From Ignavibacteria bacterium (GTDB lineage: Bacteria; Bacteroidota; Ignavibacteria; Kapaibacteriales; UBA961), in NCBI GenBank assembly GCA_016873735.1, contig VGWD01000005.1:1929-65928 (forward strand): DNA of 64,000 bases. The letters are read 5' to 3'. Below are positions 8,296 to 52,774 of this stretch, in pieces. The stretch's first letter is position 1. Each line of letters opens with the position of its first letter. The notes below the pieces were generated by a model that did not search any database, was not told the DNA's origin, and was given only the letters and a program-made list of their open reading frames with translations. The translations under genes were made by a program, and so were the position numbers.

Positions 8296-8358
8296 GTTTT
8301 GTCATCTTATAAAAATTCTCTACTTTTGTTGCGTACTTCGTGCACGCCACGAGGCAAA

Positions 8359-8390
8359 GTCGTTATGAACATAACGGCTTTGTTTTTTTT
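8359..8390 (+). terminator. Intrinsic terminator-like hairpin plus U-tract between ribBA and greA. It could equally be a greA leader attenuator.
   Basis: An 8-bp stem GTCGTTAT/ATAACGGC with loop GAAC is followed by TTTGTTTTTTTT. Confidence 0.5.
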
Positions 8391-8420
8391 ACAACATTCA
8401 CATTGAATCTGGAGAAATCC

Positions 8421-8903
8421 ATGTCATCCGGCCCAGTATACATGACCCGCGAAGGTGTCGCTAAAATGGAAGATGAATTGAGGCAACTCAAGGGAAAGGG
8501 AAGAACGGAAATAGCTCAAAAAATCGCCTATGCCCGTTCACACGGAGATCTCTCTGAAAATGCAGATTATGATGCTGCAAAACATGAGCAAGAATTGCTC
8601 GAAATGCGCATTTCAAAACTCGAATCAACATTGATGAAAGTACAGGTGATCGATTCAAAAGATCTACCAGATGATAAAATATATATCCTCTCAAAAGTAA
8701 AGCTAAAGAATCTCAATAACAGTAAAATAATTGTGTATTCTCTTGTAAGTGCGGAAGAGGCCGATTTTCAGGCGAATAAACTTGCGGTTTCTTCACCTTT
8801 GGGAAAAGCTCTATTGGGCAAAACCGTTGGTGATAAGGTTATTACCAAAGCCCCGGCAGGAGAAATAGAGTATGAAGTCCTTGAAATTGGTAAAATCATT
8901 TGA
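8421..8903 (+). CDS. greA: Transcription elongation factor GreA
   Basis: A GGAG ribosome-binding site precedes the ATG at 8421. The GreA N-terminal coiled coil and C-terminal FKBP-like domain are present, with 'HGDLSENADYDAAKHEQ'. Confidence 0.85.
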   Translation: MSSGPVYMTREGVAKMEDELRQLKGKGRTEIAQKIAYARSHGDLSENADYDAAKHEQELLEMRISKLESTLMKVQVIDSKDLPDDKIYILSKVKLKNLNNSKIIVYSLVSAEEADFQANKLAVSSPLGKALLGKTVGDKVITKAPAGEIEYEVLEIGKII

Positions 8904-8939: not shown

Positions 8940-9536
8940 ATGAATGATCGCATGGGATTTTCTTTTGATTTGATGAAATCAGAATCTGACATAGCCGATT
9001 TGCTTTCAAAAGGCAAAAGTCATGAAGCAATGAATTGTATCATGTCGCAGTTCAAGCGATTTGTCCATTCCATTGCAATACGATATATGCGCGATGATGA
9101 AGATGCAAAAGACATAACACAGGAAGTTTTCATCAAAGTATATCAATTTTTGAATACATTTCGAGGTGAGTCGCATATTCGTACATGGTTATATGCTATT
9201 ACAAGAAATATGTGTTTGAATGCTCTCGAAAAGAAAAAACGTCGAGGACATATCACAAGAATAGATACCTATGAACAATTTGATATTCCCGCTGAGGAGC
9301 ACTCAGATTCACTTATTACTGATTCTGAATTTTCTTCTTTTTTTGCCGATTGCATGTCGATATTGCCTGAAAAACAAAGAGAAACATTTATACTTCGCCA
9401 TGTGGAAGAACTTTCTTATGAAGAAATATCTAAAATGCTGGGAACGAGCATTGGTGGTTTAAAAGCAAACTACTTTCAAGCAGTTCAGAAATTAGCTCAA
9501 TATCTAGGATCAAAAGATAAAAAGGAACACATATGA
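8940..9536 (+). CDS. RNA polymerase ECF-type sigma-70 factor (sigma-24 family)
   Basis: Region 2 is 'ITQEVFIKVYQFLNTFRGESHIRTWLYAITRN'. The region 4 HTH is 'ELSYEEISKMLGTSIGGLKANYFQAVQKL'. Confidence 0.85.
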   Translation: MNDRMGFSFDLMKSESDIADLLSKGKSHEAMNCIMSQFKRFVHSIAIRYMRDDEDAKDITQEVFIKVYQFLNTFRGESHIRTWLYAITRNMCLNALEKKKRRGHITRIDTYEQFDIPAEEHSDSLITDSEFSSFFADCMSILPEKQRETFILRHVEELSYEEISKMLGTSIGGLKANYFQAVQKLAQYLGSKDKKEHI

Positions 9537-10093
9537 ATGACAAACATGAAATATTGTCGCTCTTTCCGGATCATATTAACGGAAAATTAGCTGAACATGA
9601 TAAGCTCATTGTTGATGAAGCTCTTCGTTCTTCTCCGGAACTCAAAGCTGAATATGATGAGTATGTTCAGGTATTTCACTTGCTCAATAAGACAGATATT
9701 CTATCTACCATGGAAGCCAAAGCAGATACATTCGCATTGAAATCCATAAAGCCAAAAATGATGAGGCCTATGCAAATTATGATTGGTTCTGTTACAACTC
9801 TGGCTGCTTGCCTTCTTGTTTGGATCGGCATTACTTCAACTGATCATGTATCTTCTATTGAGAAGTCTCCTGTGACAGTCGGTCACATTGAAGTAGAATC
9901 AGTTTCGTATGCTGATAATATGAATGGAACCAATATCAGTACAGATGATTTGGAAGATATCATGCTTGAGGAAGTTTTAACTTTATATGTTCGCGATATT
10001 GAATCGGATTTGGATGCACCTCTCAATCCTGTTTTGGAAGAAGAAATCACCAAGTATCTTTTAAAGGAATCTCAAGATGAAGAATCGATGTAA
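9533..10093 (+). CDS. Putative anti-sigma factor (single-pass membrane protein), translationally coupled to the ECF sigma
   Basis: Its ATGA start overlaps the sigma stop. It has a short cytoplasmic N-terminal domain, one TM helix (GSVTTLAACLLVWIGI) and an acidic periplasmic tail. Confidence 0.5.
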   Translation: MNDKHEILSLFPDHINGKLAEHDKLIVDEALRSSPELKAEYDEYVQVFHLLNKTDILSTMEAKADTFALKSIKPKMMRPMQIMIGSVTTLAACLLVWIGITSTDHVSSIEKSPVTVGHIEVESVSYADNMNGTNISTDDLEDIMLEEVLTLYVRDIESDLDAPLNPVLEEEITKYLLKESQDEESM

Positions 10094-10538
10094 TCTCTCA
10101 TCATGCATTGCGATCCTTGTGATATTCATCTCGATGCAGTTGATGAAGGCTCAGGATGAAATGCCAATGCTCAATAAAATGAAATCATTCAAGAAAATCA
10201 TGCTTATTGATAAGCTTAAAATGAATGAGGAGCAAGCAACACGTTTTTTTGCTCGATATCAGCAACATGAAGAGTATATTAAGGCGTCGCACAAGGAACT
10301 TGAACAAGCACTAGTGCATCTTGATGAATTACAAAAGTCAGGGAATCATGAGTATGACAAAGCAATACAGCAAGTTTTCGAGAAAGATCTTGCAACGCGA
10401 AAAACCATTATAGATAGAATGAAGGGGATGAAAGGTATTCTTTCTGAACAGCAATATGCTCAGTATATTCTGATTGAACATAGATTGCTGGATAATCTTC
10501 AGAAATTGGTTAAGCAAAGACAAAAAAGAAAGAAATGA
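10077..10538 (+). CDS. Periplasmic LTXXQ-motif (CpxP/Spy-like) protein
   Basis: It has a signal peptide and two LxxxQ motifs ('LNEEQATRF', 'LSEQQYAQY'). It is helical and charged. Its start overlaps the anti-sigma gene, so the three genes form one operon. Confidence 0.5.
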   Translation: MKNRCNLSSCIAILVIFISMQLMKAQDEMPMLNKMKSFKKIMLIDKLKMNEEQATRFFARYQQHEEYIKASHKELEQALVHLDELQKSGNHEYDKAIQQVFEKDLATRKTIIDRMKGMKGILSEQQYAQYILIEHRLLDNLQKLVKQRQKRKK

Positions 10539-10570
10539 AAAATCCCCTTCAATGAGAAAAGGATTGTTAT

Positions 10571-11869
10571 TTATGATCTTTTTCTTGGAGGTCTCATACC
10601 GGCATCTTTCGACCCTCTATTTGTACGCTTATCATCGCGCTTTTTGAATCCGCCGGCATCATCTCGTTTTTTGTATCCTTCATCTTCACGTTTTTTGTAT
10701 CCTCCGCCATCACGTTTTTTGTATCCGCCATCCTCACGTTTTTTGTATCCGCCATCTTCACGTTTTTTGTATCCGCCATCCTCACGTTTTTTGTATCCGC
10801 CATCTTCACGTTTTTTGTATCCGCCATCTTCACGTTTTTTGTATCCGCCATCCTCACGTTTTTTGTATCCGCCATCTTCACGTTTTTTGAATCCGCCGCC
10901 ATCATCGCGTTTTTTGTATCCTCCGCCGCCATCACGTTTCTTGTATCCGCCATCTTCACGTTTTTTGTATCCTCCGCCATCATCGCGTTTTTTATACTCT
11001 TTGTCATCCGATCTGGTAAAGCGTGGTGAGCGTTCTTTAGAAAAATCTGATCGTTTTCTGAATTCGCGCTGTGAATCTCGAGACTCATCTTTTTCGAATT
11101 CTGATTCATCTATACCTTTACGTTCGCTGCTTCTGATTTTTTTCTTTTCAGATGTTTCAAGTACGCTGAGAATCGTTCTTCCTGGATGACCTTCAAAAAC
11201 AATGACAAATTCTCCTTTAAAAGGAGATTCTGTGAATTTTGCGAATAGTTCGGAAAAAGTACCATAGTGATGATGCTCGAATGCCATGGTGAGATTACAA
11301 CCGATATAAGCTTTCCTGTCTGGTATTACTTTATTCGCTGCTTCCAATAATTGTTTCAAGCGATAGGGTGTTTCCAATAGAATTGTAGTGCGTGGTTCTA
11401 GAGCCAGAGCTTGTAATTGAGACAGACGTTCTTCGGTGGTTCTGCTTAAAAATCCTGCGCAAGTAAATACATCTGATTGGAATCCGCTTCGAACAAGTGC
11501 AGTCATGATTGAGCTCGCACCGGGAACAACGACGATATTGATACCTGCATCCAAAGCCAATTGTAATAGATATCGACCCGGATCAGCAAATATGGGAGTT
11601 CCTGCATCTGAAATCAAAGCGAATGTTTCGCCATTCTGCATGCGCTCTATTAGCTGAGGTGCATAGTATTCCTCATTATGTTCATTGAGCTGTTCTAGTT
11701 TAGCTGAAAAGTTGTGTCGTTTTATGAGCAATGCCCCAATCTTTTCTTCTTCGCAAATGATTGCATCAACTTTTTTCAGAACTTTTAATGCACGGAGTGA
11801 AATATCATCTTCATTTCCTATTGGAGTGGAGACGATATATAAAATTGATGCTTCTTTCTTCTTTCTCAT
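10571..11869 (-). CDS. rsmI: 16S rRNA (cytidine1402-2'-O)-methyltransferase RsmI fused to a long C-terminal low-complexity (KKREDGGY)n tail
   Basis: The N-terminal 235 aa is the tetrapyrrole-methylase/RsmI fold ('ILYIVSTPIGNEDDISLRAL', 'ISDAGTPIFADPG'). It continues with no stop into about 200 aa of Lys/Arg/Glu/Asp/Gly/Tyr repeats. Confidence 0.8.
   Translation of the reverse strand: MRKKKEASILYIVSTPIGNEDDISLRALKVLKKVDAIICEEEKIGALLIKRHNFSAKLEQLNEHNEEYYAPQLIERMQNGETFALISDAGTPIFADPGRYLLQLALDAGINIVVVPGASSIMTALVRSGFQSDVFTCAGFLSRTTEERLSQLQALALEPRTTILLETPYRLKQLLEAANKVIPDRKAYIGCNLTMAFEHHHYGTFSELFAKFTESPFKGEFVIVFEGHPGRTILSVLETSEKKKIRSSERKGIDESEFEKDESRDSQREFRKRSDFSKERSPRFTRSDDKEYKKRDDGGGYKKREDGGYKKRDGGGGYKKRDDGGGFKKREDGGYKKREDGGYKKREDGGYKKREDGGYKKREDGGYKKREDGGYKKREDGGYKKRDGGGYKKREDEGYKKRDDAGGFKKRDDKRTNRGSKDAGMRPPRKRS
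10640..10995. repeat. Tandem array of about 15 copies of a 24-nt unit (CGTTTTTTGTATCCGCCATCYTCA on the + strand), in frame within the rsmI 3' region
   Basis: The repeat is directly visible. The eight core copies differ only at one synonymous C/T position, and the outer copies are degenerate 24/27-nt variants. Confidence 0.95.
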
Positions 11870-13541
11870 TAATAACCTGTAAGAAGTAATGTCGAAGTGG
11901 AAAAAGTTGAAGTTTGCAAATGCAGTATCGATGTTTTACAATAGTTAGCAGTTTTCAGAAATACAGTGCCATGCATATCACTCCAAAGTATTTCATTAGT
12001 AATATCTTGAAGTAATTTTCCTTGTAGATCATATACCTTCGCAGAAAAATATGTTCTATCGTTCACAGTGAATGCTATATGTTGTATATCTGTAGGTTGA
12101 CTCGAATTATGAACTACTATCAATTGCTTGATTTCAATATCATTTATGGATGTAGTAGTTTCGGTTGATATTGGTATGGCAAGTGTTGGTATTCCATCAG
12201 CAAATCGTATGCGCAATAAAGTACCGCTTGGCATTTGAGTCGTAATCAATACCTTGGCGATTATTGAATTGCCCGGTGTGATCAATGAATCGATTGACAA
12301 GACTTTCGCTTTATCAGTCAAGGGTCGAAACTCAGTTGTATTGATCTTGAGAGTTTGATTACCTTTATTTATTATCGGGATTTCTACTATCATTGAGTCT
12401 TGAAATTGAGCATGAATACCCAAAGGGTCTGTCGCCGGTTCGGGATACAGAGGAAAAGCCGGCTGAGTAGATAATCTGAACATCCTGTCGATCATATCCG
12501 GATGGGCTATGTAAGGATTCATCCTCTTCTGTGCAGAAGAGATTAAGATTGCACGACTTCGTTCTCTTTCATCAACCGGATCTTGTTTATTCCATGAACG
12601 AATAAGTGTTTCCATATTAGTAAGAAAACCCGAATTATCGAATGTTCCTTTTCTATTGCCATATCTCGTTGCAAAATAGAGTAAACTTCTGGCAACGTTG
12701 CCCTTCATTTTATCTCTTGGTTCGAAGACTGTATCTGCTGATGCTTGTGGAAGGCCAAGTTTAGATCCGCCTGATTCCCATGATAATGATCTGTTTACTA
12801 TTCCATATGGATGATTTGAACGTCGCTCATTGGCTTTTGAATCTGATGGATAGATGATATAAATATCTGACCTTGCAGGTTCTTGATCGGCACCTTTGCT
12901 TTGAGGCCAAGAATGTTCAGTATTAAAGAGGTTTATATTAGGAATCCCGCTTGTTTGAATCGATTTACCTGTGTAAACGCATTCAACCATACCATTTACA
13001 TTATCAGCTTTCGAAAACATGAATTGTCTGGCATCTGAATAAGTGAACATCAAGGATTCGTTCAGATATTTATTGAGAGAATTATATAATTCCTGACCTT
13101 CAAGGTTTTGGGTAAAAGAAAATTCGCCATTGGGATATGTTGCTTTGCCATGTAACTTGGTGATAAGCGAGTAGCGCATGACAGGGCATGTCACACGTAT
13201 AATTGCATTTCCGCTATGTGTCATATTGTGTGGGGTAGCAAATCGGAAGGTCAGCTGTTTGCTTTCACCTGGAGATAATATTAATCGCTTATTGTCCATA
13301 ACGGTGAACACATCCCATCGAGAAAATATCATGACCGAATCAATGGTAATTGTTTCCATTGTAGGATTGGTAATCAAGATTGTTGAGCTTGTTTCATCGA
13401 TTGTTTGAATTGTGCCAAAGTCTATGCTACTAGTTGATAGGATGACTTTGCATGGATGTTCGGACATTGCACTTTGTAATGGATGATAAATCCACATCAT
13501 TGATACAATCAAACCAATTATGTAAACAATGTTTTTCATAA
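11869..13541 (-). CDS. Secreted endonuclease I-family nuclease with Ig-like domains and a T9SS C-terminal sorting domain
   Basis: The signal peptide is MKNIVYIIGLIVSMMWIY. Endonuclease_1-like motifs 'CVYTG', 'NTEHSWPQS', 'GNVARSLLYFATRY' and 'DPVDERER...RMNPYI' are present. The CTD-like tail is '...KVYDLQGKLLQDITNE...'. Its stop overlaps the rsmI start (TAATG). Confidence 0.6.
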
Positions 13542-14282
13542 GGATTGCATACTTTGAAATTGCTCCTCTTCCCATTTGGAAGAGATGATATCTGCAATTT
13601 GAGAAAAATCGCAAGAATGACCCAAGCATTCAGATAACGATGTGGAATGGTTGTTCAAAGCATTGCGTAGCAAGACGGCCTCATCACTTGATGTTGAAAG
13701 AATATCGGCAATATTCAAATATGAATTATCCAATGGCAGAGATCCGTGCTGCAGTAATACTCCATCAATGATTCTTTGGGCACTACCTATGAGTTTTTTC
13801 CCCTTACAAGTCAATTCATGACGAGCAGAAGCAGAAAAGCAAGCAGATGATTCCATTGATTGATAATGTTCCTGAAAAGATGGTACGCCTTTGGCGAATT
13901 CCAAATCTTGTATCGATAATGATTGCAAACATTTCAAGAAAAAGTGATGAATATCACGGTAAACATTATGAGCATCTTCCATCGAAGCACATGGCATTGT
14001 TATGCAGTATGTTAACTCATTAGCATGAAGAACAGCTCTGCCACCGGTAGGTCGATAAACAATCGGTATCGAGCGTTCTTTGCACTGTTTTTCTATGGTT
14101 GATGTTAATAATTGATGTTTTCCAAGAGAAAGAGTATGACGATCCCAGGCATAAATCCGAAATAGTGATTGTGTTGATATTGTTTCATGTAATGAACGTG
14201 CTAGCTCTTGAGCATTGTTCATATCCAAAGACATGTTTTCTTCACCACTGAGGAAACCACTATTGACGAAAGACCAATTCAT
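13536..14282 (-). CDS. Lipoate-protein ligase / octanoyltransferase family protein (BPL_LplA_LipB catalytic domain)
   Basis: 'RPTGGRAVLHANELTYCI' resembles the LplA/LipM active-site region. The length is 248 aa. Confidence 0.5.
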   Translation of the reverse strand: MNWSFVNSGFLSGEENMSLDMNNAQELARSLHETISTQSLFRIYAWDRHTLSLGKHQLLTSTIEKQCKERSIPIVYRPTGGRAVLHANELTYCITMPCASMEDAHNVYRDIHHFFLKCLQSLSIQDLEFAKGVPSFQEHYQSMESSACFSASARHELTCKGKKLIGSAQRIIDGVLLQHGSLPLDNSYLNIADILSTSSDEAVLLRNALNNHSTSLSECLGHSCDFSQIADIISSKWEEEQFQSMQSL

Positions 14283-16421: not shown

Positions 16422-19277
16422 TCAGCTTAACTTCCTTTTGACTTCAACTTGCTTATAAGCCTCGATGATGTCTCCAACTTGTATATCATTGTAGCCATTG
16501 ATGCTCATTCCACATTCATAATTTGTGTCCACTTCACGAACATCATCTTTGAAGCGTTTAAGAGCCGATAATGTAGAATTATAAACGGGAAAGCCGTCAC
16601 GCAAGACGCGAACTCTGTCATTTCTGTTGATTTTTCCGGAAGTAACATAGCATCCTGCAACGGTTCCAATCTTGCTGATTTTGAATACTTGTCTGATTTC
16701 AGCGGTACCCGTGATTTCCTCTTTGATTTCAGGAGAAAGCAATCCTTCCAATGCCATCTGTATTTCATTGATACAGTCATAGATGATTGTGTACAATCGT
16801 ATGTCAACACCTTCTGATTCCGCGGATTTTCTCGCCTGTGATGTAGGGGAGACATGGAAGCCGACGACAACTGCACTTGATGCTGCAGCGAGCATCACAT
16901 CTGATTCTGAAATAGGGCCTACACCTTTGTGTAGAATGGTCACTTTTGCTTCGTCTCTGGTGAGTTTTTGCAATGAATCTGAAAGTGCTTCAAGTGATCC
17001 ACTCACATCACCTTTGATGATGAGTCGAAGTTCTTTGGTACCACCACGAAGAATGTCTTGAGAAATTTCATCGAGAGTAATCGGACGCATTTGCTTGAAA
17101 TGTTGTTCTCTTTTCAATTGCTGACGTTTGATTGCAATTGCTCTGGCTTCAGCTTCCTGTTCCAGCACGGCGAACAAATCACCAGCTTGCGGAGCTCCGT
17201 CAAAACCGGATACTTGAACGGGAACAGAAGGCCCTGCTGATTCAACTCGATGTCCTCGCTCATCATACATTGCTCGAACCCGACCTGAATAGATTCCAGC
17301 TACAAATGCATCGCCGATTTTCAATGTTCCTTTTTGAACCATCACGGATGCAAGAACTCCTTTTCCTTTATCCAAGTGCGATTCAATGATTGTTCCTCTC
17401 GCGATTCGATTTGGATTTGCCTTCAGATTCAATAATTCTGCTTCAAGGAGGATCTTTTCCATCAATCCTTCAATATTGATTCCTTTCTTGGCGGAAATTT
17501 CAGCGCATTGATACTTACCTCCCCAGTCTTCAACCAATACACCGCGGTCCGCCAATTGTTGCTTCACTCTGTCTGGATTCGCATCTTCCTTGTCGATCTT
17601 GTTCAAAGCCACTACGATGGGAACATTTGCAGCTTGAGCATGGCTGATGGCCTCTATTGTTTGGGGCATCACATTGTCATCTGCCGCAACCACAAGAACA
17701 ACAATGTCTGTTACTTGGGCACCGCGTGCACGCATGGCGGTAAATGCTTCATGACCCGGCGTGTCCAAAAATGCTATTGTCCTTCCATCAGGAAGATCAA
17801 CATGATATGCTCCGATATGTTGGGTTATGCCTCCGGATTCACCGGCAACAACATTGGTTTTACGGATATAATCAAGAAGTGAGGTCTTTCCATGATCGAC
17901 ATGCCCCATGATCGTGACGATTGGGGGTCTTGCCAATAATGATTCCTCGGCGTCTTCGATGTCGGTGATTTCTTGTGCAGCTTGTTCATCTAGGAAATCA
18001 ACCTGGAATCCATAATCATCTGCTATGAGCGTGATGGTGTCTTTATCAAGTCTTTGATTGATGCTGACCATCAAGCCCAAAGACATACACTTCATGATGA
18101 TTTCAGCTGCCGTGGTTCCCATAAGGGCGGCAAGATCAGCTGTTGTTACGAATTCAGTCAGGCGTAGAATTGTACTTTCGCGTTCGATCTCTTCAATTCT
18201 ACGAGCTTCTTTTTCTTCTCGTTCTAGTTTTTTCTTCTGCTTGAGTTTCGTTTTGAAACCTGATCCGGAATCTTCCATTCCTGACAGTGTTTCGCGAATT
18301 GCTCTTGTTACATCTTCTTCGGTGATAGTTTCACGAATTGATTTTTTCTTCTTTTTCTTTTTGTCTACACCTTTGGCATCTTTCGACGGTGCTGGACGGA
18401 AGTTCTTCTTTGCACCTTTATCTGCATCATCCTCAGTCTTGGCAGGTGCGATGCCGAATCCGTCTTCTTGGCCTTTGGCCTTTAAGCGTTCACCAATCGA
18501 ATGTTGATTTCCTTGCCTGTTTTGTCTACGATCATCGTCTCGTCTTTCACCTTGTTGAGGGCGATCGCCTCTCTTTGCATTTCTGTCCGGTCTGCCATAA
18601 CGATCACCTTCTTCTTGCCGAGAGGAAACTGTGATTTTTCCTACTACAGTCAAACCTCTAAGATGTGGCATCGACCCTGCTTCATACTCAACTTCATTGA
18701 TGCGTTTTTTTCTTTTCTTCTTTGGTTCTTGAGAATCATCATAAGTTTTTGTGACGGTTTCTTGAGCAGGTTCAGCTATGCTTTCCTCTGCCTTTTCAGA
18801 AGGTGTTTCGGTTGATGGAGGTATGGGTTCGGATTCAACAATGTCAGTTGCTGCCAAGATCTCAGTTTCAGTCTTTGTTTTTTTCTTTGTAGATTTTTTT
18901 GGAGCGGGTTGTTCTTTGCTTTCAGATTCTTCCGGTACCGAAGGAGCTGATTGCACTTCTTCCAAAGGCTCTGCTGTCTGCGGTTCGGGAGCTGCTTCCT
19001 CTTCTGAAACTGCTTCTGATAGGGCATCTTCAGACTCGCCTTTTTCAGGATTGCGAGCATGGTGATACTTTTCAAGCTTTTCTCTTTGCTTTTCAGCTGC
19101 TTTCGCTTCTCGGGCGAATTTATCCATGACTACGTCAACCATCTCATCTGTTAGTACAGATGTAGGTTTATTTTCAACGCTGAAACCTTTGCCTTGAAGA
19201 AATTCTACAATGGCATCCTTCCCAATATTGATTTGGGAGGCAAGCTTGAATAATCGTGTTCCTTTTGATGCAGGCAT
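16422..19277 (-). CDS. infB: Translation initiation factor IF-2
   Basis: The G domain has '[18 protein letters not shown]', 'DTPGHEAF' and 'NKIDK'. The N-terminal region is charged and low-complexity. The length is 951 aa. Confidence 0.95.
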
Positions 19278-40265: not shown

Positions 40266-40266
40266 G

Positions 40267-40341
40267 TGGGCGAAGAGGGATTTGAACCCCCGACATCCTG
40301 CTTGTAAGGCAGGCGCTCTGAACCAACTGAGCTATTCGCCC
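40267..40341 (-). tRNA. tRNA-Val (anticodon UAC)
   Basis: The reverse complement is GGGCGAATAGCTCAGTTGGTTCAGAGCGCCTGCCTTACAAGCAGGATGTCGGGGGTTCAAATCCCTCTTCGCCCA. It forms a 7-bp acceptor stem, has the anticodon loop CTTACAA and a T-arm GGTTCAAATCC. Confidence 0.85.
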
Positions 40342-52465: not shown

Positions 52466-52774
52466 TCATTCATATCGATCTGACCGACGATCGCCACCGC
52501 GAGAATCACGACGTGGACCGCGTGATTGCTCTTCGCGTGGACGAGCCTCATTTACTACCAATGTACGTCCGCTGAACTCTTTACCATTGGTTGATTCGAT
52601 GGCGCCTCTGGCTTCATCATCATTATCCATTTCAACAAAACCAAAGCCGCGTGAACGACCGGAGATTTTGTCTGTAATGACAAAGGCACCTGTGACATTG
52701 CCGTATGACTCAAAAAGGGAACGAAGTTCTTCGGATCCCATCGTGTACGGCAAATTGCCTACATAAATATTCAT
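52466..52774 (-). CDS. RRM-type RNA-binding protein with an RGG/RD-rich C-terminal tail
   Basis: RNP-2 is 'IYVGNL' and RNP-1 is 'RGFGFVEM'. The tail is 'RPREEQSRGPRRDSRGGDRRSDRYE'. Confidence 0.85.
   Translation of the reverse strand: MNIYVGNLPYTMGSEELRSLFESYGNVTGAFVITDKISGRSRGFGFVEMDNDDEARGAIESTNGKEFSGRTLVVNEARPREEQSRGPRRDSRGGDRRSDRYE

Follow-up and report, generated by a model that had tools for sequence, protein, structure and literature searches.

RsmI, the 16S rRNA methyltransferase (E. coli YraL; EC 2.1.1.198; PDB 5HW4, 9PZG), is known in E. coli to carry a C-terminal domain (CTD) of 42–46 residues, RsmI_C, which consists of three helices and, as part of the auxiliary protomer of the dimer, binds 16S rRNA helix 23b (h23b) on the platform of the 30S subunit (PMC13037946). 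In the same cryo-electron microscopy study, published in 2026, removing RsmI_C or its third helix alone nearly abolished methylation of C1402 in E. coli, and its authors expected the contacts between RsmI_C and h23b to be probably conserved family-wide (PMC13037946). The rsmI gene considered here lies in a stretch of 64,000 nt (the window) on contig VGWD01000005.1 of Ignavibacteria bacterium GCA_016873735.1, and it encodes a 432-aa protein in which, by profile search, the canonical helix-turn-helix RsmI_C is absent and a long repetitive tail occupies its place. Our preferred explanation, which we hold at a probability of about 0.5, is that the gene encodes a functional 16S rRNA C1402 2′-O-methyltransferase, predicted to form Cm1402, in which the place of RsmI_C has been taken by a multivalent RNA/30S-binding tail, selected and dependent on composition, that functionally stands in for the lost domain. 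The replacement is read from sequence comparison and predicted structure; from it, we infer the RNA/30S binding and the functional substitution.

The sequence-only reading had called the gene RsmI, as public databases already do, and profile and structure matches bear this out. The NCBIfam equivalog model TIGR00096 scores 181.2 bits (cutoff 167.9), aligning residues 9–246 with profile positions 1–240 of 275, and PF00590 (TP_methylase) matches residues 10–208 (E = 4e-31). Residues 9–230 match the RsmI structures 5hw4_A (4.1e-43) and 9pzg_V (4.8e-43). The alignment to these E. coli chains is gap-free in the N-terminal half, where the metal-binding and rRNA-contact residues E44, H68, D92 and D137 (numbering of PMC13037946) correspond to E40, H64, D88 and D133 of the window protein. 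E40 and D88 are invariant in an alignment of relatives (n = 69), and conservation is only partial at E. coli Y103/H104, which are R99/Y100 here. AlphaFold2, run with a 69-sequence alignment, models residues 9–225 confidently, with a predicted local distance difference test score (pLDDT) mostly of 80–95. By these matches the enzyme is RsmI, sharing with the canonical protein the two-lobed core fold and the equivalents of E44, D92, H68 and D137, and its target is presumably the same, the 2′-O of C1402 on the assembled 30S subunit. The difference is that E. coli has RsmI_C and the window protein has a disordered repeat tail of ~200 aa instead. We nevertheless keep the protein in the RsmI family, as a member with a variant architecture, because RsmI_C is an accessory domain that is also missing from Bacteroidia RsmI.

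The absence of RsmI_C was supported by two profiles. Consistent with a TIGR00096 match that stops at position 240, PF23016 (RsmI_C) gave no match in the window RsmI, either over the whole protein (E ≤ 1) or in the tail alone (E ≤ 10). On E. coli RsmI the same model scores 64.7 bits, a match that validates both the E. coli sequence and the PF23016 model. PF23016 was present in 0 of 69 relatives. A custom CTD profile, built with jackhmmer, scored −0.4 bits on the window RsmI with all filters off (--max). Across 256 collected RsmI-family proteins, this profile found the domain in 35, none of them among the 159 with a tail of at least 60 aa. The tail had been described as an addition to a compact enzyme, a description that needs correcting, as the tail sits where the absent RsmI_C should be. 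A short helix predicted just after the core (residues 233–251) was considered as a remnant of CTD helix alpha-1, for which the CTD profile gives no support. The parts of the gene, all on the minus strand, are as follows.

10571–11869 (−): complete rsmI coding sequence, 432 codons plus a stop codon at 10571–10573.
11180–11869 (−): RsmI N-terminal part and core (predicted S-adenosylmethionine-dependent TP_methylase fold), residues 1 to about 230, placed by TIGR00096, PDB matches and AlphaFold.
11117–11173 (−): single predicted helix, residues 233–251 (TILSVLETSEKKKIRSSER), low confidence (AlphaFold pLDDT about 57–60).
10997–11116 (−): non-repetitive mixed-charge linker rich in Ser, Arg, Asp and Glu, residues 252–291.
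10625–10996 (−): array of 15 [YF]KKR[DE][DG]G(G) units, residues 292–415, in DNA units of 24 and 27 nt.
10574–10624 (−): basic C-terminal end, residues 416–432 (TNRGSKDAGMRPPRKRS), closing with GMRPPRKRS.
10541–10565 (−): terminator-like hairpin with a 10-pair stem and then a T-run, TTTCATTTCT, a match to consensus only.

As the sequence-only reading had stated, the catalytic domain runs on without a stop into the repeats. The open reading frame (ORF) has no internal stop codon over its 432 aa, and the junction text 'FVIVFEGHPGRTILSVLETSEKKKIRS' is present. The earlier count of at least 15 octapeptide repeats agrees with segmentation of the protein at [YF]KKR, which gives 15 units, 11 of them octapeptides and 4 nonapeptides (consensus YKKR(E/D)DGG). 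Tandem Repeats Finder reports a 24-nt period in 13.8 copies at 10653–10993 (85% matches, score 454). The central seven units are the same at the DNA level save for a synonymous GAA/GAG alternation, which indicates recent expansion or homogenization of the array, and the codons of the array (TAC, CGT, GGC/GGA) are unlike those of the catalytic part, as expected of an amplified unit.

The array (residues 292–415) is 61% charged with a net charge of +0.145 per residue, and contains 26% Gly, 12% aromatic and 2% other hydrophobic residues; residues 236–291 have a fraction of charged residues of 0.59 and a net charge of about 0. For the whole tail, the fraction of charged residues is 0.59, the net charge per residue is +0.12 (about +24 per chain, that is +48 per dimer), the isoelectric point is 9.9, 6.6% of residues are hydrophobic and about 23% are acidic. 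Its kappa (charge patterning) is 0.14, close to that of shuffled sequences, and its mean Kyte-Doolittle hydropathy is −2.37. The tail is a strong polyampholyte, its charges well mixed and biased towards the basic side, with one aromatic residue per unit. In the classes of polymer physics, a well-mixed strong polyampholyte forms an expanded, soluble coil, and low kappa and composition therefore predict such a coil for the tail. Disorder prediction, which had been proposed as a check, agreed: AlphaFold gives residues 254–427 a pLDDT below 50 and no secondary structure, and the ~200-residue tail is on this prediction intrinsically disordered. The likeness to RGG/YG extensions drawn earlier holds for the disorder; it fails in that Arg is followed by Asp or Glu and no RGG triplet occurs. 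The helix at residues 233–251 is conserved among the closest relatives only and has no similarity to RsmI_C. The linker evolves faster than the core (ratio of nonsynonymous to synonymous substitution rates, dN/dS, of 0.29–0.9, versus 0.01–0.1 between orthologues for the core), yet it is constrained. A match of Prion_octapep (E = 4.8) was dismissed as low-complexity noise.

An assembly chimera or collapse, or a gene that ends after the catalytic domain with repeats that are non-coding or read in another frame, could mimic this architecture. Every frame is stop-free across the array, although merely because it is repetitive: the other-frame ORFs at 10644–11189 (+; 'SSRFLYPP…') and 10594–11109 (−; 'MADTKNVK…') are open only because the repeat has no stop codons, and their translation is unsupported by the substitution pattern. 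Among four close GTDB species representatives, the contig stops within the rsmI array in three (L001, L003 and L004), which means that short-read assemblies struggle with the array and that the exact unit number is insecure. Assemblies repeatedly break at the array, and truncated ('partial') RsmI entries of the clade are numerous in databases. Nevertheless, in more than 100 orthologues from independent assemblies the frame is maintained across arrays differing in length and unit size and leads to a common C-terminal motif. The same 432-aa protein is also found in an NCBI metagenome-assembled genome (MAG; RsmI, 'Ignavibacteria bacterium') and in Joint Genome Institute (JGI) data, where contigs from at least two further metagenome samples carry the identical protein on identical DNA. 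One relative has its tail of 13-aa repeats on a 4.23-Mb contig. Strains with 97–100% identical cores have 7, 9, 12, 14, 15, 16 or 20 units and return to a constant C-terminus, (K/N)DAGMRPPRKRS, whose last 9–12 residues are unchanged at any repeat number (variants in close strains are KDAGMRPPRKRS, NDAGMRPPRKRS and GSGMKPPRKRS); the basic C-terminal end shows 0 substitutions against L009 and L010. Between orthologues, the ratio of nonsynonymous to synonymous differences (pN/pS) in the tail is 0.26–0.35 in the RsmI frame and 0.7–4.2 in the two shifted frames, such that only the RsmI frame shows a predominance of synonymous changes. Finally, the terminator-like hairpin stands directly past the tail's stop codon. 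A stop or frameshift between domain and repeats, or an assembly artefact, had been named as what would overturn the fusion, and the orthologues exclude both. We consider an artefact essentially refuted as far as the existence of the tail is concerned, with less certainty over the exact unit number. As judged from the orthologue comparison, frameshift, premature-stop and alternative-frame readings, including the antisense ORF 10644–11189, are excluded, and the tail is translated in frame and under purifying selection.

Relatives were collected from 1.84 billion cluster representatives using the catalytic domain alone as the query, which avoids a bias toward tails. Among the closest clusters at 50% identity, with core identities of at least 47%, about 68 measure 324–754 aa, and below about 45% core identity lengths are back at the canonical 226–300 aa. 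None of the members seen in the close clade lacks a tail. Thus, the gene is not the unusual one-off that it had been taken for; by this comparison, the tailed, CTD-less architecture is standard in a large RsmI clade. The comparison of RsmI orthologues for tails that had been suggested shows clade-wide tails that cannot be aligned and share a composition. Among about 78 long representatives whose tails were tabulated, the K+R fraction is 0.2–0.35, D+E 0.15–0.25, aromatic 0.05–0.12 and aliphatic below 0.1, with internal periodicities of 5–40 residues and a C-terminus that is almost always basic. Their DNA units measure 24, 27, 30, 39 nt and more. Distant relatives have other units, such as YKKRDDAGG (9 aa), DGDSGGYRKR (10 aa) and GGFSRDRKDSRG (12–13 aa), and these are still in frame with a basic stretch at the end; the unit of the relative on the 4.23-Mb contig is DRKPREFGDKPYG (13 aa). 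By the names that the sources supply, tailed RsmI proteins come from Ignavibacteria, Kapaibacteriota, Chlorobiota, Bacteroidota and 'FCB group' MAGs, and no cultured species was identified among them. A distant subgroup (P0172–P0175, P0181, P0183, P0185 and P0206; 39–49% core identity, 590–757 aa) has both a strongly acidic N-terminal extension of 80–180 aa and a C-terminal tail, rich in RGG/FGG, that reaches up to 450 aa. One member of this subgroup is labelled Chlorobiota, and it is unusual for one enzyme to have disordered ends of opposite charge.

Bacteroidia RsmI (Roseivirga, Cyclobacteriaceae and Psychroflexus; L005–L008) ends directly after the core. These proteins, for example that of Roseivirga pacifica (L008), resemble the window protein in lacking RsmI_C and are 42–49% identical to it over the core; they differ in being 228–236-aa ORFs that end a few residues past the 'KGEFV.V.EG' strand, with no tail.

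We also asked where else the repeat occurs. A degenerate DNA pattern for YKKRDDGGYKKR found 4 loci in JGI metagenome contigs. All 4 are rsmI, so the repeat, in its exact form at least, is no mobile module shared among genes: in that collection, exact YKKRDDGGYKKR is seen only in rsmI genes. A tail-only search of a 5.8-billion-protein database returned a single match, an RsmI fragment, and is uninformative on other carriers of such tails because of composition-bias correction and candidate selection by word count. PF23348 (RDM3_C) and PF02095 (Extensin) labels on some relatives are below gathering cutoffs and were set aside as low-complexity noise.

In our preferred explanation, the tail would be a multivalent, sequence-unspecific tether to RNA or the 30S subunit. 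Lys and Arg would touch the rRNA backbone and the regularly spaced Tyr or Phe could stack on exposed bases, while Gly would lend flexibility and the interspersed Asp and Glu would leave the chain expanded and soluble and its binding weak. Such a tether may raise the capture rate and the residence time on late pre-30S particles, and would supply the distal anchoring that RsmI_C gives other bacteria. Unit number and sequence would drift fast, via replication slippage or recombination of 24-nt units, which would be tolerated because what matters for such a function is composition and valence, not the precise sequence. The tail is selected, rather than junk, as judged from its low in-frame pN/pS, its constant C-terminal motif and its clade-wide composition. 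Tethering to RNA or the pre-30S particle had already been suggested; it is plausible, and the missing domain makes the proposal more specific. A bacterial precedent comes from RhlE helicases and their disordered C-terminal regions (PMC11260450). Several points weigh against this explanation. Strict compensation is challenged above all by the tail-less Bacteroidia enzymes: having neither CTD nor tail, they indicate that a CTD-less core apparently suffices in a sister lineage, which weakens the need for compensation. The acidic residues, about 23% of the tail, lower RNA affinity compared with a purely basic tail. The pN/pS alignments were guided by protein, which favours the RsmI frame, and repeat units can be paired between orthologues in more than one way. 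The custom profile was seeded with an E. coli CTD sequence validated only by its strong PF23016 match.

The same observations can be read with no specific role for the tail in ribosome recognition. In that case, the array would be a minisatellite prone to slippage that a permissive C-terminus tolerates as a largely neutral or generic appendage, acting at most as a solubility aid or entropic bristle, or as a hydrophilin-like protectant. The spread of 7–20 units at 97–100% core identity speaks for rapid copy-number change, the near-identical central DNA units speak for recent expansion, and both a tail-free Bacteroidia and tails that cannot be aligned between subclades fit this account. However, the frame is kept, pN/pS is low and the terminal motif does not change; the same unusual composition recurs in about 68 clusters despite differing DNA units; and in addition to the lack of tail-less members in the close clade, the tail systematically excludes the CTD. 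We consider this account doubtful overall, and a purely neutral appendage would not readily explain why frame, composition and terminal motif are conserved.

Alternatively, the tail could be a condensate or localization module that drives or joins RNA-dependent phase-separated assemblies and so concentrates RsmI at nascent subunits, in contrast to a one-to-one anchor on the 30S subunit, yet compatible with the tether that we prefer. The eukaryotic analogy is the glycine- and arginine-rich (GAR) domain of fibrillarin. The tail has features that would suit such a module, namely aromatic 'stickers' (one Tyr or Phe per 8–9 residues), Gly spacers and opposite charges, and the distant clade members carry classical RGG/FGG tails together with acidic N-terminal disordered regions. 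Bacterial precedents are the disordered regions of RhlE (PMC11260450) and Bacteroides Rho (PMC13269538). In contrast, well-mixed charges (kappa 0.14) favour expanded soluble chains over self-association, and RsmI is expected to be of low abundance. Condensate formation is therefore possible but disfavoured by the charge pattern, and we regard a condensate module as an unlikely explanation of the tail. A bolder extension, which we rate as very unlikely, is that late 30S maturation takes place in an RNA-dependent condensate or hub, akin to a nucleolus, that the tails of the clade organize, with a broad Ignavibacteria/Kapaibacteria/Chlorobiota-related set having swapped a structured docking domain for a 'fuzzy' disordered one. 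If true, this would be a bacterial convergence on the fibrillarin-GAR and Nop56-58 KKE/D logic of eukaryotic rRNA 2′-O-methylation.

Low-complexity tails on eukaryotic rRNA-modification factors include the GAR (RGG) domain of fibrillarin and the KKE/D tails of Nop56, Nop58 and Cbf5. The likeness to KKE/D tails is one of composition only, as the window unit is KKR followed by one or two acidic residues; it differs by adding Tyr and Gly-Gly, and homology is not expected, the likeness being convergent only. Disorder is common to RGG/GAR regions and the window tail, whereas the clustered RGG/RG motifs are missing from the latter. Fibrillarin differs further in its Rossmann-type fold, as opposed to TP_methylase, its nucleolar context and its RGG triplets, which are absent from the window tail. 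Among bacterial proteins, the C-terminal disordered regions of the DEAD-box helicases RhlE1 and RhlE2 enhance RNA binding and unwinding (PMC11260450), and the disordered regions of RhlE and of Bacteroides thetaiotaomicron Rho increase RNA binding or activity and can form condensates (PMC11260450, PMC13269538). These are likewise basic low-complexity regions on RNA-handling enzymes, but their catalytic domains are unrelated, they are less acidic and they are not near-perfect octapeptide repeats; there is no homology, and we draw on them by analogy only. Mycobacterial nucleic-acid proteins can have Lys-rich low-complexity tails, such as the PAKKA repeats of Ku, which are lineage-restricted, tandem, basic C-terminal repeats that modulate nucleic-acid binding (PMC3553676); they differ in being DNA-binding, rich in Pro, Ala and Lys, and without acidic and aromatic residues. 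A literature search, made without most subscription journals, found no publication on tails, low complexity or disorder in RsmI.

The locus contradicts the expectation that CTD–h23b recognition is universal in RsmI. It offers a natural experiment in which an rRNA-modifying enzyme would recognize the assembled subunit without a structured docking module, and it raises the question of whether a folded RNA-binding domain can be substituted by a fuzzy polyampholyte tail. It would also be a clean addition to the few bacterial enzymes with functional low-complexity regions, being repetitive, length-polymorphic and placed on a well-understood core. If the tail is dispensable, it is only a lineage-specific decoration of a housekeeping gene.

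At its 5′ end, the rsmI ATG (11867–11869) shares 1 nt with the stop codon of the upstream gene (11869–13629, −), which encodes a 586-aa Endonuclease I family protein (PF04231, 3e-36; with a weak match to an Ig-like domain). This gene order and the 1-nt overlap are also found in L014 and L015, and the conserved pairing suggests that the endonuclease gene, whose product is probably extracytoplasmic, is co-transcribed with the ribosome-modification gene rsmI. At the other end, the terminator-like hairpin begins 6 nt past the rsmI stop, inside a 32-nt gap to a convergent gene ending at 10538. That gene belongs to a block of three overlapping or abutting genes convergent to rsmI (8940–10538, +): the first encodes an ECF-type sigma factor (Sigma70_r2/r4), and the others are a 186-aa ORF without a Pfam match, a possible anti-sigma factor, and a 153-aa ORF that likewise has no Pfam match. 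GreA lies directly upstream of the sigma-factor block (8340–8903), and the block is conserved in L014 and L015.

Elsewhere in the window, Rfam and tRNA scans of the 64 kb found no rRNA, and a tRNA-Val (anticodon TAC; 40266–40341, −) was the sole Rfam or ARAGORN match. A 951-aa ORF (16422–19277, −) resembles translation initiation factor IF-2, judged by its GTPase motif alone, and its initial ~380 residues are of low complexity and rich in Glu, Lys, Pro and Ser, with a stretch rich in Arg, Asp and Gln inside. A 102-aa protein with a single RNA recognition motif (52466–52774, −; PF00076, 2.4e-22) has a short end rich in Arg, Asp, Gly and Ser (…EARPREEQSRGPRRDSRGGDRRSDRYE), which makes it the window's second RNA-binding protein with a mixed-charge low-complexity end.

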